From Verrucomicrobiota bacterium (GTDB taxonomy: Bacteria > Verrucomicrobiota > Verrucomicrobiia > Palsa-1439): DNA of 64,000 bases. The stretch lies in NCBI GenBank assembly GCA_016871575.1, contig VHCW01000016.1, positions 133-64,132 on the forward strand. Direction: 5' to 3'. Below, in pieces: positions 8,213-14,404 of this stretch; within the stretch, counting starts at the first letter, position 1, and every line of letters starts with the position of its first letter. A program made the translations under genes and the position numbers. The notes under the pieces are model-generated. The model did not search any database. It was not told where the DNA came from and was given only the letters and a program-made list of their open reading frames with translations.

Positions 8213-8559
8213 CAAGGGCGTGACAGTAGCAGGAACGGCAACACAGTGCAAACCCGTTTGGTGATCCCGTTGGTGAACGGATTTCGTTTCAAGGGCATCG
8301 CCTTCGTCTCTTGAACTCCGTCAAACTTGAATGGAAGGGCACGTTTCTAGTAACGCACGCAGTCCCGTGTCGTTTCGGGACGGAGTGCGAATCGTTTGGA
8401 CGGAACGATCTCGCGCAACCCCACTTCGCTTCGCTGCGTGGCTCACTACGAACTACCCTTTGGATGTGGTTTGATGGAGCACGCTCGCCGGTATTCTGGT
8501 CTTGCCTTGTCACCGCGATAGACGGTATTCTGAGCACACAAACAAACAGGAGGCATTCC

Positions 8560-9363
8560 ATGAAATGTCAGGTTTCTGCTGCTGTTCGCGGTATGTTGTT
8601 GTTGGTCGTGTTTGCCGTTGCGGTGAGTTGTGGGAAATCGCAATCTTCCGGCAGTCCCACTGCGCAAGGCAATCTCGCCGTGGACCTCGGCGGCGGGGTG
8701 ACGATGGACTTCGTGCTCATCCGTCCCGGCAACTTCACGATGGGGTCGGACAAGGGAAGCAGCGACGAAAAGCCGGCGCGCAAGGTGACAATCACCAAAC
8801 CGTTTTATCTCGGCAAGTTTGAGGTCACGCAGGAGCAGTGGCAGGCCGTGATGGGCAGCAATCCCAGCAACTTCAAGGGCGCGAAGAATCCGGTTGACAC
8901 TGTAAATTGGGAGGATTGCCTGACGTTCGTGCGGAAACTGGGCGAGAAAGTGCCGGGGTACACGTTCCGGTTGCCGACGGAAGCGGAATGGGAATACGCC
9001 TGCCGCGCCGGCAGCAGCAGCGAGTATTGCTATGGCGATGATACCGGTGGGTTGGGCGACTACGCTTGGTACAGCAATAACTCCGGCAGCAAGACGCATA
9101 CGGTCGGTGAGAAAAAACCGAATACGTGGGGACTCTATGACATGCACGGTAACGTCTATGAATGGTGTCAGGATTGGTATGGAAACTATTCCACCAACGC
9201 GGAGACCGATCCGGTCGGGCCGTCTTCCGGGTCGAACCGTGTGTTGCGCGGCGGTTCATGGAGCCGCAATGCCTCGACTTGCCGGTCGGCAATCCGTTAC
9301 AACTTCAACCCGTCGAATCGCTTCTACATCTACGGGTTGCGGGTTGTGGTGGTCGTGCGCTGA
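8560..9363 (+). CDS. DGR target (variable) protein: lipoprotein with an FGE-sulfatase / C-type-lectin-fold domain; VR at the C-terminus
   Basis: RBS AGGAGG 6 nt upstream of the 8560 ATG. Lipobox AVSC/G. FGE-sulfatase hallmarks ([47 protein letters not shown]). The last ~45 codons are the VR. Confidence 0.85.
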   Translation: MKCQVSAAVRGMLLLVVFAVAVSCGKSQSSGSPTAQGNLAVDLGGGVTMDFVLIRPGNFTMGSDKGSSDEKPARKVTITKPFYLGKFEVTQEQWQAVMGSNPSNFKGAKNPVDTVNWEDCLTFVRKLGEKVPGYTFRLPTEAEWEYACRAGSSSEYCYGDDTGGLGDYAWYSNNSGSKTHTVGEKKPNTWGLYDMHGNVYEWCQDWYGNYSTNAETDPVGPSSGSNRVLRGGSWSRNASTCRSAIRYNFNPSNRFYIYGLRVVVVVR

Positions 9364-9369
9364 GGGCTT
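9227..9369 (+). repeat. DGR variable repeat (VR), 143 bp, ending 6 nt past the target stop codon
   Basis: Gap-free alignment to 10938-11080. Within the 143-bp body, 13 of 14 substitutions lie at positions that are A in the other copy; one is G/T (9297/11008). There is one further G/C difference at the 3' boundary (9365/11076). Mismatched sites map onto AAC/AAT codons of the other copy. Confidence 0.85.
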
Positions 9370-9393
9370 AATTACAATTTAGATTTTTACCTC

Positions 9394-9412
9394 CGCCGCG
9401 CGAAGCGCGGCG
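9394..9412 (+). promoter_or_regulatory. GC-rich hairpin (CGCCGCGC-GAA-GCGCGGCG) 25 bp downstream of the VR; position matches the stem-loop required for DGR retrohoming in characterized systems
   Basis: 8-bp perfect stem read from sequence. A similar hairpin (GCCGCGCC-AACG-GGCGCGGC) occurs at 11163-11182 downstream of the TR. Confidence 0.5.
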
Positions 9413-9517: not shown

Positions 9518-9859
9518 ATGATGACCGCTCATCGTCCGCCAATCTATACGAAGTATTACGATCTACTGGGGTGGCTGCTGGATCGCACGGCGAAGTTTCC
9601 GAAGAACATGCGGTTCGGGCTGGTGCAGAAGATCGAAACCATCGCGTTGCGTCTGCTGGAGCAGTTCATCGAGGCGATTTACCGCAAAGACCGCGCCGCG
9701 CTCTACCTGCCGGTGAACCTCGACTTGGAAAAGCTGCGTGTCTTTCTGCGGCTGAGCCACGACCGCGGCGTCCTCAGCGCCGACCAACTGCGCTTTGCGA
9801 TTGGCGAGATTGATGAAATCGGTCGGATGTGGCACGGCTGGGTGAAACCAAAGCCGTGA
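9518..9859 (+). CDS. avd: DGR accessory variability determinant (Avd; four-helix-bundle / 23S rRNA IVS protein family)
   Basis: 113 aa, basic, helical. YTKYYDLLGWLLDRTAKFPKNMRFGLVQKIETIALRLLEQFIEA parallels the Bordetella phage bAvd pattern. Sits immediately upstream of the RT and overlaps it. Confidence 0.8.
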   Translation: MMTAHRPPIYTKYYDLLGWLLDRTAKFPKNMRFGLVQKIETIALRLLEQFIEAIYRKDRAALYLPVNLDLEKLRVFLRLSHDRGVLSADQLRFAIGEIDEIGRMWHGWVKPKP

Positions 9860-10908
9860 AACGCTTCGGCAACCTCTACGATGCGATTTGCTCTTGGGAT
9901 AACTTGGAACTGGCCGCCCGCCGCGCCCGGAAACGGAAACGTTACCGGTGGTACGCTGAGGACTTCGAGTTGCGCCGCGAGTCGGTGCTGCGCGAGATTT
10001 ACAACGAACTGATTGAGCAACGCTGGCAACCCGCGCCCTACGAAACCTTCCGCATCTACGATCCGAAGGAGCGCCTGATCTGCGCCGCGCCGTACCGCGA
10101 CCGTATCGTTCATCACGCTGTCTGCAACATCGTTGCACCGCTCTTGGAACGCAGTTTCATCGCCCACAGTTACGCCTGTCGCCTCGGCAAAGGCACGGGC
10201 GCGGCGCGGGCGCACTGCCGGCAGTTGGTGAAACAGTACCCATACGCGCTGAAAGCGGACGTGACGAAATACTTCGCCTCGATTGACCACGCGCTCTTGA
10301 AAACGAAGCTGCGCCGCCATCTCAAGTGCGCGCCGACGCTGGCGTTGCTCGACCGCATCATTGATTCGTGGCAAACGACCGACGAACCGCCCGCGTGGTT
10401 TGCGGGCGACGATCTATTGACGCCGCTGGCGCGTCCGCGCGGCCTGCCGATTGGCGCGTTGACGAGCCAGTTGTTCGCCAACCTGTATCTGAGCCGTATT
10501 GATCATCTCGTCGAGGAACAACTCCAACCCGGTGGCTACGCGCGGTACACGGATGACTTGGTGCTGTTCGCCGACTCGAAGCGGTTCCTATGGGATGCGC
10601 TCGACCGGCTCCGGGCGGAGTTCGCAGCGGAACGGTTGCAAGCGCATCCGGTCAAGTGTCAGGTGCTGGCCTGTCGGGACGGTGTGCCGTTCCTCGGCTT
10701 CCGGTTCGGCCCGGATTGGACGCGCGTGTTGCCGGAGAACGTGCGCCGTTTCCACCGCCGGATGGCAGCGTTGCGGCGTGCGGTTCGGGCGGAACGAAGA
10801 CGGTTGGCTGAGGCGTGGCCGACGATGTTCAGGTGGTTTCAGTTCGTCCGCGAACAACCCGGCAACGACGGACTGGTGCTGGCCGAATGCCAGCGCCAAG
10901 TGTTTTGA
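9856..10908 (+). CDS. DGR reverse transcriptase
   Basis: RT motifs including the DGR-specific LPIGALTSQ ([I/L]GxxxSQ replacing the QGxxxSP of group II/retron RTs) and YTDDLV (YxDD). N-terminus KRFGNLYDAICSWDNL resembles bRT. Start proposed at GTG 9856 overlapping the avd stop (GTGA); the six-frame ORF opens at 9829. Confidence 0.88.
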   Translation: MKRFGNLYDAICSWDNLELAARRARKRKRYRWYAEDFELRRESVLREIYNELIEQRWQPAPYETFRIYDPKERLICAAPYRDRIVHHAVCNIVAPLLERSFIAHSYACRLGKGTGAARAHCRQLVKQYPYALKADVTKYFASIDHALLKTKLRRHLKCAPTLALLDRIIDSWQTTDEPPAWFAGDDLLTPLARPRGLPIGALTSQLFANLYLSRIDHLVEEQLQPGGYARYTDDLVLFADSKRFLWDALDRLRAEFAAERLQAHPVKCQVLACRDGVPFLGFRFGPDWTRVLPENVRRFHRRMAALRRAVRAERRRLAEAWPTMFRWFQFVREQPGNDGLVLAECQRQVF

Positions 10909-10937: not shown

Positions 10938-11080
10938 CCGGGTCGAACCGTGTGTTGCGCGGCGGTTCATGGAACAACAATGCCACGAATTGCCGGTCGG
11001 CAAACCGGAACAACAACAACCCGTCGAATCGCAACAACAACTACGGGTTGCGGGTTGTGGTGGTCGTGCGCTGAGCGCTT
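10938..11080 (+). repeat. DGR template repeat (TR), 143 bp, 30 bp downstream of the RT stop
   Basis: Contains 12 AAC/AAT codons in the VR reading frame (e.g. aac-aac-aat, aac-cgg-aac-aac-aac-aac, aac-aac-aac-tac) that are the mismatched sites. Confidence 0.85.
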
Positions 11081-11249
11081 TCCTTCCGGAGGAGAGATTG
11101 GCCGCGTTCATCAGGACGCGGTCACCGTTCCAATGGAAAGCCCAGGGCCGGTCTCCCGCGCCGCCGCGCCAACGGGCGCGGCGAGCCAAACACGCGGCAC
11201 CGGGGCGGGGCTGGTAGCCAGACCAACAGGCGAAAGCCCCGCTCCGTTG

Positions 11250-11304
11250 TGAGACTTAGACTGTGAGACTTAGACTTGCGATGATTGTCGAGGAAGGGTA
11301 GAAT
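11250..11304 (+). promoter_or_regulatory. Putative vapBC promoter/operator: tandem direct repeat TGAGACTTAGACT x2 abutting -35 TTGCGA, 17-nt spacer, -10 TAGAAT
   Basis: Read directly: 11250-11276 repeats, 11276-11281 TTGCGA, 11299-11304 TAGAAT, RBS GAAGGTG at 11311-11317. Confidence 0.4.
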
Positions 11305-11322: not shown

Positions 11323-11538
11323 ATGACGTATCGCGGTCACGTGAAATCTGGTCAGGTGGTATTGGATGAACCGACGCGGTTGCCGGAAGGCGCCGAGGTG
11401 TCGGTCGAGGTGGCTTCGTCGGCCGGGGTGTCATCCTTGGGGCAAACACTGCTCCAGTACGCCGGTCAGGCGCGGGATTTGCCTGCCGATGCCGCTCGCA
11501 ACCACGATCACTACTTGTACGGGACACCGCGCCAATGA
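11323..11538 (+). CDS. vapB: Type II antitoxin (VapB-like, AbrB/SpoVT-type small DNA-binding protein)
   Basis: 71 aa. Stop overlaps the start of the downstream PIN-domain gene (ATGA at 11535). Confidence 0.6.
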   Translation: MTYRGHVKSGQVVLDEPTRLPEGAEVSVEVASSAGVSSLGQTLLQYAGQARDLPADAARNHDHYLYGTPRQ

Positions 11539-11936
11539 GCCGGGTGTTTGCCGACACGTCGTACTATTTGGCGCTGCTCAATTCCCGCGATGAGTTCCAT
11601 TCCATTGCTTGCCAACAAACCGGTGCCTTGAACGGTCGGATTGTGACCACCGCTTGGGTAATCACGGAACTGGGCAACTTCATGGCGAAGGGAGCCAATC
11701 GCCGTTTGTTTCTGGCATTGTTGGCCGCGCTGCGCGACGATGATCGCGTGACCATTGTGCCGCCCACGACTGAACTGTTGGAGGATGCGCTGGCGCTGTA
11801 CGCTCGCCGCGCGGATAAGGATTGGTCGGTCACGGATTGTGTTTCGTTTGTGGTGATGGAGGAACACGGGTTGAAGGAAGCTCTCACTGCCGATCATCAC
11901 TTTGCACAAGCGGGTTTTCACACGTTGCTTCTCTGA
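11535..11936 (+). CDS. vapC: PIN-domain toxin, VapC family
   Basis: N-terminal FADTSYYLALLNSRDEFH (PIN acidic residue), later acidic residues; ~133 aa, typical VapC size. Confidence 0.8.
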   Translation: MSRVFADTSYYLALLNSRDEFHSIACQQTGALNGRIVTTAWVITELGNFMAKGANRRLFLALLAALRDDDRVTIVPPTTELLEDALALYARRADKDWSVTDCVSFVVMEEHGLKEALTADHHFAQAGFHTLLL

Positions 11937-14327: not shown

Positions 14328-14404
14328 TGGTGGGCGCGACAGGACTTGAACCTGTGACCTCGCGGGTGTGATCCGCGCGTTCTAGCCAACTGAACTACGC
14401 GCCC
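14328..14404 (-). tRNA. tRNA-Val (anticodon CAC), with encoded CCA
   Basis: Reverse complement folds as GGGCGCG-TA-GTTC-AGTTGGCTA-GAAC-G-CGCGG-ATCACAC-CCGCG-AGGTC-ACAGG-TTCAAGT-CCTGT-CGCGCCC-A-CCA. All four stems pair perfectly; T-loop TTCAAGT. Confidence 0.9.

Follow-up and report, generated by a model that had tools for sequence, protein, structure and literature searches.

Introduction

In the diversity-generating retroelement (DGR) of Bordetella phage BPP-1, pairing between a primer RNA and the IMH has been proposed as the basis of directionality (Naorem 2017, PMC5703328). A template:primer duplex is formed between a spacer RNA strand and the 3′ end of the template repeat, TR (Handa 2018, 2024); in BPP-1, cis-priming involves Sp A56/TR G117. 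DGRs can also carry a GC-rich inverted repeat past the variable repeat (VR), with a stem of 7–10 bp and a 4-nt GRNA loop, 4–34 bp away (Guo 2011). In chromosomal DGRs, putative IMH/IMH* pairs have been described as imperfect repeats past the mutagenised region (Wu et al. 2018).

The element described here lies in a window of 64,000 nucleotides of contig VHCW01000016.1 and shares with BPP-1 (mtd-avd-TR-brt) differences specific to adenines, a VR at the C-terminus of a C-type-lectin-fold protein, an Avd and a DGR-type reverse transcriptase (RT). In both, a short imperfect repeat comes after an adenine-poor identical block, the TR 3′ end is paired over ~7 bp with a spacer strand that favours the VR where VR and TR differ, and a GC-rich inverted repeat lies past the VR. 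With the chromosomal targets TvpA of Treponema denticola and LdtA of Legionella (Wu et al. 2018) it shares the FGE-sulfatase/CLec fold, the C-terminal VR, the AAC-rich TR and a lipoprotein target. The cassettes differ in layout: here the parts run target-avd-RT-TR and the spacer RNA follows the TR, whereas in BPP-1 the spacer lies between TR and RT.

A complete chromosomal DGR in a freshwater Verrucomicrobia genome

The locus, in a freshwater Verrucomicrobia MAG, is a complete chromosomal DGR comprising target, avd, RT, TR and structured spacer RNA (Table 1), and as such is a routine element of a known kind. The target protein (NCBI MBM3859038.1, identical to JGI P0121) has a predicted signal peptide ending in AVSC and a domain matching Pfam PF03781 (E = 6.5e-50) that reaches its C-terminus. 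Its gene has an AGGAGG motif 7 nt ahead of the ATG at 8560; the longest mechanical open reading frame begins at 8311. An exact look-up of the Avd protein returned no match, because gene callers begin avd one codon later (9521 in the JGI gene call). The RT carries the I/LGxxxSQ motif and YxDD catalytic box typical of the DGR clade. The nearest homologues of the RT are themselves located in DGR cassettes, and no second VR was found within the window.

Table 1. Features of the DGR locus, with positions counted from the first nucleotide of the window.
Feature	Position	Strand	Description
DGR target gene	8560..9363	+	267-aa predicted lipoprotein with FGE-sulfatase/C-type-lectin-fold domain
Variable repeat (VR)	9227..9369	+	Last 45 codons of the target, its stop codon and 6 nt past it
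Mutagenised VR core	9263..9329	+	Contains all 13 A-to-N substitutions
T9297	9297	+	Lone internal non-adenine substitution (TR G11008), 5′-adjacent to substituted adenine 9298
Identical block	9330..9364 (= TR 11041-11075)	+	35 bp; G 17, T 10, C 6, A 2
Proposed recipient-side discriminator, G9365	9365	+	G versus TR C11076; can pair with C11142 in the RNA past the TR
GCTT common to VR and TR	9366..9369 (= 11077-11080)	+	Complementary to AAGC 11138-11141
AT/pyrimidine-rich spacer	9370..9393	+	ATTAC and TTTTACC motifs conserved in the clade (VR flanks of relatives)
GC-rich inverted repeat	9394..9412	+	CGCCGCGC GAA GCGCGGCG; 8-bp stem, 3-nt loop, ~24-25 nt past the VR
bAvd-like accessory variability determinant	9518..9859	+	Pfam PF22296, E = 2.1e-19; between target and RT
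DGR reverse transcriptase	9829..10908	+	359 aa; Pfam RVT_1, E = 9e-19; IGALTSQ and YTDD motifs in the translation
Template repeat (TR)	10938..11080	+	Begins 30 nt past the RT stop codon
Proposed donor-side discriminator, C11076	11076	+	In family-wide TR motif A-G-C; unpaired with opposing RNA C or A
TR/spacer side of putative template:primer duplex	11077..11083	+	GCUUUCC; perfect complement of 11135-11141; covaries across clades
First stem-loop of TR-downstream RNA	11099..11124	+	RNAalifold columns 49-59/65-74; several compensatory pairs
Putative primer strand	11135..11147	+	GGAAAGC-C-CAGGG; ~60 nt past the TR; C11142 opposite the discriminator
Remaining structured RNA	11156..11248	+	Helix 11156-11160/11193-11197 around a hairpin; long stem 11199-11248 with conserved CUGGUAG

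Close relatives of the element occur in Verrucomicrobia/Lentisphaerae MAGs from this and further freshwater metagenomes (L007, L008, L016/L017, L020, L022, L023, L093 and L096). They share its cassette order, a VR ending in CTGAG-G-GC(T/C) against a TR ending in CTGAG-C-GC (hyphens set off the boundary base), a primer strand GGARAGC-C-CAGGG, the VR hairpin and an RNA of ~170 nt past the TR, but differ in target gene and genomic site. Several of their VRs are damaged; that of L007 is frameshifted, and in L008 a TGG codon has become the nonsense codon TGA. The pair L016 and L017 represents one element in two samples, whose VRs show 16 differences, all at TR adenines, marking this close relative as an evidently active element. 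No such variation accompanies the element in the window, whose VR is without differences among three assemblies (the window itself, the independent JGI contig L005 and the part of L006 that reaches the VR). Exact look-ups of the RT returned only short Logan contigs; these break off at the repeats and are uninformative on VR variants.

Differences between the variable and template repeats

The VR aligns with TR positions 10938-11080 without gaps at an offset of 1711, giving 15 mismatches over 143 bp, 13 of them at TR adenines (A to T in nine cases, A to G in two and A to C in two). Among the 14 internal mismatches the same 13 fall on adenines, a strong bias given 33 A in the 143 nt of the TR (P = 5.8e-8); the TR core holds 27 adenines, mainly in AAC codons. 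The two remaining mismatches are G11008 against T9297 and C11076 against G9365. A preliminary description of this DNA had singled out the former as the sole non-adenine substitution inside the repeat body, and the ungapped alignment bears this out, no indel being needed and the mismatches staying on adenines.

The same description had reported identical, G-rich 3′ blocks of 35 bp, which we recover at 9330-9364 (the string it quoted is itself 34 nt, 9331-9364, and occurs as two exact copies in the window against 0 expected). This block encodes ten residues and the TGA stop codon at 9361-9363, and the G/C difference at 9365/11076 thus lies 2 nt beyond the stop. Only GCTT separates it from full divergence at 9370 and 11081, again as first described.

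The boundary base in related elements

The preliminary description had likened the 35-bp block to an IMH/IMH* pair and placed the IMH versus IMH* distinction at the single G/C difference. The second part is supported: the difference is conserved in relatives, obeys a rule of complementarity and follows the logic of a characterised system, BPP-1. The block, in contrast, is not itself a discriminating IMH but the adenine-poor coding end of the VR, the counterpart of the (GC)14 part in BPP-1, and the IMH-like part amounts to only ~5-6 bp, from G9364/G9365 to T9369.

The pattern of TR 'AG-C' against VR 'AG-G' or 'AG-T' recurs in ~40 related DGRs. The 3′ boundary could be read in 76 distinct VR/TR pairs; past the mutagenised core, 22 of them first differ at TR C/VR G and 18 at TR C/VR T. 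The G/C form found here is kept in relatives whose RTs are 91, 87, 72, 62, 61 and 49% identical to that of the window. The 3′ blocks themselves differ between elements and match within each element. The VRs of L065, L139 and L145 are mutated at the adenine 2 nt ahead of the discriminator, and the cDNA therefore extends at least that far. One relative departs from the pattern: in L099 (RT 51% identical) the VR base equals the TR base, and a complementary primer base is absent. The survey of Wu et al. (2018) treats IMH/IMH* generically, without the invariant TR 'AG-C' or a complementarity rule. On these comparative data G9365/C11076 behaves as an IMH/IMH* discriminator, with a putative role in directionality.

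Pairing of the putative primer strand

Downstream of the TR, a strand complementary to the TR 3′ end (a 7-mer complement within 130 nt has a chance of ~0.008) continues into C11142, which can pair with VR G9365 but not with TR C11076. Across related elements we located this strand by a rule that took no account of either the opposing base or the VR base, that maximised pairing with the TR and that required a following C; pairing at +1 to +7 and −1 relative to the discriminator is thus partly built in, while position 0, position +4 and all VR pairings are independent of it. The primer base opposite the discriminator pairs with the VR base in 31/31 VRs (C:G in 17, A:T in 13 and G·U in one), an association that, as the elements share a phylogeny, reflects at least two coordinated switches and not 31 independent events, and it pairs with the TR base in 0/28. 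The C:G state is found in two separate clades of the RT tree, and both partners have therefore switched together at least twice. A second such site lies at position +4, where the primer pairs with the VR in 26/31 and with the TR in 14/28. The Treponema relatives L065, L071 and L139 carry the A:T version, with a primer strand only 5 nt past its duplex partner.

The register of the duplex is itself supported by full compensatory change: the TR:primer pairing appears across clades as GCUUUCC/GGAAAGC, ACCCUU/AAGGGU, UCACAC/GUGUGA and UUAAUAU/AUGUUAA. In this register 86% of positions are paired versus 32-47% when it is slid by 1-2 nt, a comparison in which the choice of site was partly pairing-based. 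The trailing C(A/C)(G/C)G motif of the primer strand is also conserved. A naive search for complements recovered 12 clear sites, each with C next; taking the best 7-8-nt complement irrespective of a trailing C gave chance sites in weaker elements and was abandoned. An alternative register suggested by RNAalifold on the ten closest elements, TR GCGCUGAGC : GCCCAGGGC, was likewise rejected, its pairs being invariant in the clade and failing in L045, L085 and other clades.

In the window the primer strand makes 5 contiguous pairs with the VR versus 7 with the TR, whereas in BPP-1 the VR wins both counts. More extensive pairing with the VR is seen in relatives, with 12 contiguous VR pairs in L124 and in L171, 10 in L154 and 9 in L085. 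In the window, discrimination would depend on one base close to the junction.

As a control we examined BPP-1, where Sp47-56 pairs with VR118-127 at 10/10 positions and with the TR at 7. Sp U54 faces the first IMH/IMH* difference. This reproduces the published pattern. The comparison with a characterised DGR that the preliminary description had proposed thus comes out in its favour, with differences of scale. BPP-1 has an IMH of 21 bp with several differences, against 5-6 bp and one discriminating base here. Its first difference lies 3 nt from the cDNA start and its co-conversion boundary 5-10 nt upstream, whereas here the discriminator would lie 1-2 nt from the predicted cDNA start and transfer reaches to within 2 nt of it. 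At the equivalent position, BPP-1-like phage DGRs have G or A in the TR, C in the VR and G in Sp; a scan of viral contigs returned only such distant elements, which add a third base combination and not an independent test within the clade.

Structured RNA past the TR and a hairpin past the VR

The RNA downstream of the TR shows compensatory changes in 22/44 predicted pairs (alignment and RNAalifold), and its first stem-loop may correspond to the Avd-binding stem-loop of BPP-1. Neither the VR flank nor the TR-downstream RNA has an Rfam family, at gathering thresholds or at E <= 1, and three sub-threshold hits were dismissed as chance. At ~170 nt and conserved, the TR-downstream RNA could be curated as an Rfam family.

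The stem of the VR-downstream hairpin is preserved by compensatory changes in L016, L020, L023, L093, L096 and L099. Its loop is GAA and not GRNA, and relatives have GAA, GTA, GTCA, GACA or GAAT; in BPP-1 a GAAA loop lies 5 nt from the VR, as against a 3-nt loop at 25 nt here. A GC hairpin (11099-11124) also follows the TR at a similar distance. With a hairpin after both repeats, the hairpin therefore provides no discrimination between VR and TR at this locus.

The non-adenine mismatch at 9297

T9297 falls at the third position of an Arg codon, turning CGG into CGT in the context TR GA to VR TT, and is identical in assemblies L005 and L006. Being synonymous and inside the known background error of DGR RTs, it is ordinary and requires no special explanation. 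The non-adenine error of the BPP-1 DGR RT has been put at 0-0.5% (Handa 2018), and non-A TR/VR differences are present in 23% of DGRs (Wu 2018). T9297 may be such a background RT error, possibly coupled to misincorporation at the neighbouring adenine, or a neutral point mutation, in either case tolerated because it is synonymous.

That it arose as an ordinary point mutation in VR or TR after the last homing, and is not a product of the retroelement, is a possibility we take seriously if tentatively. The synonymous change, its fixation across all three assemblies and the variable third position of the same Arg codon in related TRs (G, C, C) would all fit. The flanking DNA of the assemblies is, however, 100% identical, leaving little apparent time for drift, the identical GA-to-TT change is found in L007 and L124, and the overall rate agrees with the reported RT error. 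In related DGRs, moreover, 9/27 internal non-adenine mismatches lie directly 5′ of a substituted adenine versus 4.5 expected (one-sided P = 0.025). This twofold excess, confined to the 5′ side, has P = 0.10 before and 0.025 after 'AG-C' boundary sites are dropped, and the clustering of non-adenine mismatches 5′ of substituted adenines is suggestive.

A model for the boundary base, and its alternatives

The region 9227-9369 is probably best explained as the 3′ VR end of a complete DGR in which G9365/C11076 constitutes the IMH/IMH* distinction, read through pairing with the primer. We envisage that the TR and the downstream RNA are transcribed together, and that the strand GGAAAGC (11135-11141) folds back on the TR 3′ end GCUUUCC (11077-11083) to give a template:primer duplex from which reverse transcription would be primed in cis, with 11142, 11143 or 11144 as candidate priming bases. 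The cDNA would start within A11074-C11076, limits set by the sequence data, and extend 5′-ward with misincorporation at adenines; the 35-bp identical block, being adenine-poor, would be copied faithfully. Still attached to the primer RNA, the cDNA would then replace the VR. At the junction, the RNA-cDNA hybrid would have continuous complementarity to the VR (G9365 and GCTT 9366-9369) and would be mismatched with TR DNA, so that the VR would act as recipient and the TR as donor.

The same data would also arise if the complementarity were a consequence of homing, the primer RNA templating or entering the VR bases G9365 and GCTT each time without any targeting role. Complementarity between the VR flank and the primer strand runs for 5-12 nt and goes no further, and a TR that is never rewritten would keep its own base. 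We nevertheless consider this reading unlikely: the two VRs of L023 differ at +4 despite one shared primer strand, marker co-conversion in BPP-1 has its boundary upstream of the nucleotide copied first, which leaves primer-proximal sequence untransferred (Naorem 2017, PMC5703328), and the BPP-1 recipient needs its IMH before homing (Guo 2011).

More doubtful again, and in our view quite improbable, is that the G/C difference is a functionless relic lying just outside the cDNA-copied stretch and never homogenised. The site is indeed past the last position to which transfer can be traced (the adenine at −2, mutated in some relatives), and the sequences diverge 5 bp further on. Drift at such a site is hard to reconcile, however, with a C kept in the TR of ~40 elements over RT identities of 35-91% and absent from every VR, with the 2-7 conserved identical bases that flank it, or with its covariation with a third site, located 18-86 nt past the TR. 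An error of sequencing or assembly caused by the two repeats, at the boundary or at the non-adenine mismatch, can be dismissed as negligible: short-read contigs do break at the repeats (L001-L004 end at the TR's first variable position and the contig end of L006 lacks GCTT), but L006 is identical to the window up to G9365, the independent assembly L005 has the same VR, T9297 and G9365 included, and many independent relatives have the same G/C difference.

Conclusion

The value of this locus lies in its boundary base and not in the non-adenine mismatch. How cDNA enters the VR while the TR is spared is incompletely understood according to a 2026 paper (PMC12875486), and the only mechanistic proposal, pairing of primer RNA with the IMH, is founded on one phage. 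The comparisons made here suggest the same logic in a distant clade, reduced to one base and covarying over dozens of elements. We regard it as an even call whether donor and recipient are told apart by essentially one nucleotide in a large set of DGRs from Verrucomicrobiota, Lentisphaerota, Bacteroidota, Spirochaetota and Planctomycetota, the TR having an invariant A-G-C at the cDNA start, the VR G or T, and the primer a base that partners the VR only. If so, these elements would offer a rule, applicable from sequence alone, for telling where priming occurs in an uncharacterised DGR and which copy is its true recipient; and if pairing between primer and target sets the direction of retrohoming, the choice of target would be reprogrammable by one compensatory base pair.

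The boundary between the variable and template repeats

At an offset of 1711 bases, the variable repeat (VR) and template repeat (TR) form an ungapped alignment with 15 mismatches in 143 bp, 13 of which replace a TR adenine in VR (nine by T, two by G and two by C). With 33 adenines among the 143 TR bases, the probability that adenines account for at least 13 of the 14 internal mismatches is 5.8e-8. No indel is required by the alignment, and T9297 against G11008 is, as the preliminary description had it, the sole internal non-adenine mismatch. The 35 bp before the boundary (9330-9364), previously reported as identical and G-rich, are both (17 G, 10 T, 6 C and 2 A), but the string quoted for them is 34 nt long and has exactly two occurrences in the window. 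The repeats then differ at a single base (G9365 in VR, C11076 in TR; hereafter the discriminator), share GCTT and are unrelated from 9370 and 11081 onwards; no further copies of either repeat end were found in the 64-kb window. On translation, both the TR and VR reading frames close with a stop codon.

The locus is a complete diversity-generating retroelement (DGR). Its target protein (NCBI MBM3859038.1, from a Verrucomicrobia MAG) contains an FGE-sulfatase/C-type-lectin-fold domain (E = 6.5e-50); the target gene is found in JGI samples 3300020074 and 3300020083 as well, and several SRA runs contain the reverse transcriptase (RT). Flanking housekeeping genes, with ribBA, ribH and nusB on the upstream side and nadB on the downstream side, place the DGR on the chromosome and not on an obvious prophage. 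A tRNA gene, the sole Rfam gathering-level match in the 64-kb window, lies ~3 kb away. A VapBC-like toxin-antitoxin pair lies directly downstream.

Features of the DGR locus and neighbouring sequence, in window coordinates
Feature	Position	Details
Target gene	8560-9363	267-aa predicted lipoprotein; AGGAGG 7 nt upstream; VR forms its 3' end
VR	9227-9369	
GC-rich inverted repeat	9394-9412	8-bp stem, GAA loop; 24 nt past VR; compensatory changes keep the stem in relatives
bAvd-like gene	9518-9859	E = 2e-19
Reverse transcriptase	9829-10908	DGR-type IGALTSQ and YTDD motifs
TR	10938-11080	Begins 30 nt past the RT stop
Conserved RNA	11081-11250	~170 nt; parts: stem-loop (11099-11124); GGARAGCCCAGGG; GCCAAAnACGCGG; long stem with CUGGUAG
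Putative primer strand	11135-11141	GGAAAGC
Intervening base	C11142	Counterparts VR G9365 and TR C11076
Tandem 14-mer	11248-11275	TGTGAGACTTAGAC, perfectly duplicated
VapBC-like pair	11323-11936	71-aa ORF and a PIN-domain gene (Pfam E = 1.3e-12) whose start it overlaps
tRNA gene	14331-14404	- strand; 66.5 bits

The discriminator in related DGRs

Related loci were collected by exact look-ups and by searching metagenome, GTDB-genome and viral contigs with an RT alignment, and 83 distinct adenine-biased VR/TR pairs were extracted with a purpose-written script. Throughout the close clade (contigs L007, L008, L016, L017, L020, L022, L023 with two VRs, L093 and L096; RT identity 91% to 49%), VR ends in CTGAG-G-GC(T/C) and TR in CTGAG-C-GC(T/C). 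The block preceding the boundary varies between these elements, yet VR matches TR inside each; homing therefore homogenises the block and never the G/C position. Across the 76 pairs with a readable 3' boundary, the first mismatch past the mutagenised core is TR C/VR G in 22 and TR C/VR T in 18, always with AG-C in TR and followed by 2-7 common bases; one related contig, L099, is without a discriminator. Such recurrence in related DGRs shows that the G/C difference, for which a sequencing error had been considered, is not an error. We found no description of this AG-C rule in the DGR papers and full-text literature searched, and it may be known elsewhere.

Complementarity between the discriminator and a putative primer strand

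The seven bases after the TR discriminator (GCUUUCC, 11077-11083) have a perfect complement in the putative primer strand downstream of TR, for which the chance within 130 nt is ~0.008. Both strands change together in other clades: ACCCUU/AAGGGU (L045), UCACAC/GUGUGA (Treponema elements) and UUAAUAU/AUGUUAA (L085). Immediately after the primer strand come, without exception, one base, a C and then (A/C)(G/C)G. The TR pairing and the trailing C are partly by construction, because the strand was located via pairing to TR +1 to +7 (counted from the discriminator) plus that C; the rule is blind to the intervening base and to VR. Facing a VR G the intervening base is C (17 VRs), and facing a VR T it is A (14); one automatic call put T opposite G. 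Removal of identical VR/primer-strand pairs left 31 distinct VRs. The intervening base is complementary to its VR counterpart in 31/31 (30 Watson-Crick, one G·U) and to its TR counterpart in 0/28; the elements are phylogenetically related, so sequence counts are not event counts. Position +4 behaves similarly, pairing with VR in 26/31 and with TR in 14/28. In a neighbour-joining tree of RTs, elements with the C:G state group into two distinct clades, so both partners switched together at least twice.

The window primer strand itself pairs with seven TR bases versus five VR bases, and the primer may write its own complementarity into VR whenever homing occurs, as opposed to reading it there. 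The JGI contig L006, which carries the same element, ends in ...GCGCTGAGGAATTA (L006:3795-3811; window 9353-9373) without GCTT after the discriminator. This reflects an artefact of the contig end or else a genuine 4-bp deletion, removing the tetranucleotide predicted to pair with the primer strand.

The characterised system for comparison is the DGR of Bordetella phage BPP-1. Its first copied base is TR G117, primed from A56 of the spacer RNA (Sp) paired to TR U118 inside the TR118-129:Sp47-56 duplex (Handa 2018; 2024 preprint). Naorem 2017 (PMC5703328) proposed that its primer RNA pairs with IMH, and placed its co-conversion boundary at TR107-112. Sp47-56 (UAGGUGGUCA) pairs with VR118-127 at 10/10 positions (one wobble) and with TR at only 7, Sp U54 lying opposite the first difference (TR C120, VR A120) between IMH and IMH*, the recipient- and donor-side motifs. 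At the equivalent place, BPP-1-like phage DGRs from IMG/VR have TR G or A, VR C and Sp G in 21 VRs. The BPP-1 pattern is thus confirmed, and the window G/C difference is a site of this type, cut down to a single base. The earlier reading of the 3' end as an IMH/IMH* pair is supported, with refinements. A stronger form of the pattern is found in five distant DGRs (L171, L124, L154, L085 and L082), whose putative primer strands are complementary to the VR flank over 9-12 contiguous bases and to TR over far fewer; L171 has 12 contiguous pairs with VR and 0 with TR from +1.

The VRs of L065, L139 and L145 carry a substitution at the adenine in position -2 from the discriminator, so cDNA covers position -2, and the discriminator itself is never transferred. 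This sequence pattern confines the first copied base to A11074-C11076, with C11142, C11143 and A11144 as candidate priming bases.

The non-adenine mismatch

T9297 falls at the third position of an Arg codon and is silent (CGG in TR, CGT in VR); both other assemblies covering VR have it too. It lies directly 5' of a substituted adenine (TR GA, VR TT; 9297-9298), and a single internal non-adenine mismatch of this type is also found in each of the closest relatives: GA to TT in L007 (2312-2313) and GA to AC in L008. Tandem GA to TT is thus present in three elements, the third being L124 (TR GTCGAAT, VR GTCTTAT). Boundary sites excluded, 81 VR/TR pairs of related DGRs gave 27 internal non-adenine mismatches, nine of them 5' neighbours of substituted adenines versus 4.5 expected (one-sided P = 0.025), and these 27 show no excess on the 3' side. 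The 5' excess, although weak, hints at an error linked to extension from a mispair. For the BPP-1 enzyme the error rate at non-adenines is 0-0.5% (Handa 2018), and non-adenine VR/TR differences are present in 23% of surveyed DGRs (Wu 2018), so one such change per ~110 non-adenine positions is expected; we regard T9297 as ordinary.

Flanking structures and activity

The inverted repeat past VR fits the DGR hairpin/cruciform, with stems of 7-10 bp at 4-34 bp from VR (Guo 2011), except that its loop has 3 nt and not 4. A hairpin (11099-11124), probably an RNA element, follows TR at a similar distance, so a hairpin alone does not separate VR from TR here. The AT/pyrimidine-rich spacer between VR and its hairpin (9370-9393) has conserved ATTAC and (C)TTTTACC motifs and is otherwise variable, judged from the window and the VR flanks of L016, L020, L022, L045, L093 and L096. 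The RNA after TR is conserved in DGRs of Verrucomicrobia and Lentisphaerae, with compensatory changes in 22/44 pairs predicted by RNAalifold; no Rfam family matches it, and a new family could be curated from it. The tandem 14-mer immediately past it is absent from the aligned relatives.

The VR of the window element is identical across three assemblies. Diversification of the clade in nature is shown directly by L016 and L017 (both 2388-2536), a single element from two samples of the same study, whose VRs have 16 differences, all at TR adenines, beside 864 identical bases of flank, the downstream flank being identical. Both closest relatives have damaged VRs that look like by-products of error-prone copying: L007 (2403-2426) has 2 extra nt relative to its own TR beside AAC repeats, giving a frameshift and early TAG, and L008 (3470-3476) has TGG to TGA at a conserved Trp adjoining a substituted adenine.

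Interest in this locus centres on the boundary base, the element otherwise being of a known kind. With its covariation, the boundary base would extend a proposal for DGR directionality made for a single phage to a distant clade, in which that proposal is testable by one compensatory base pair.
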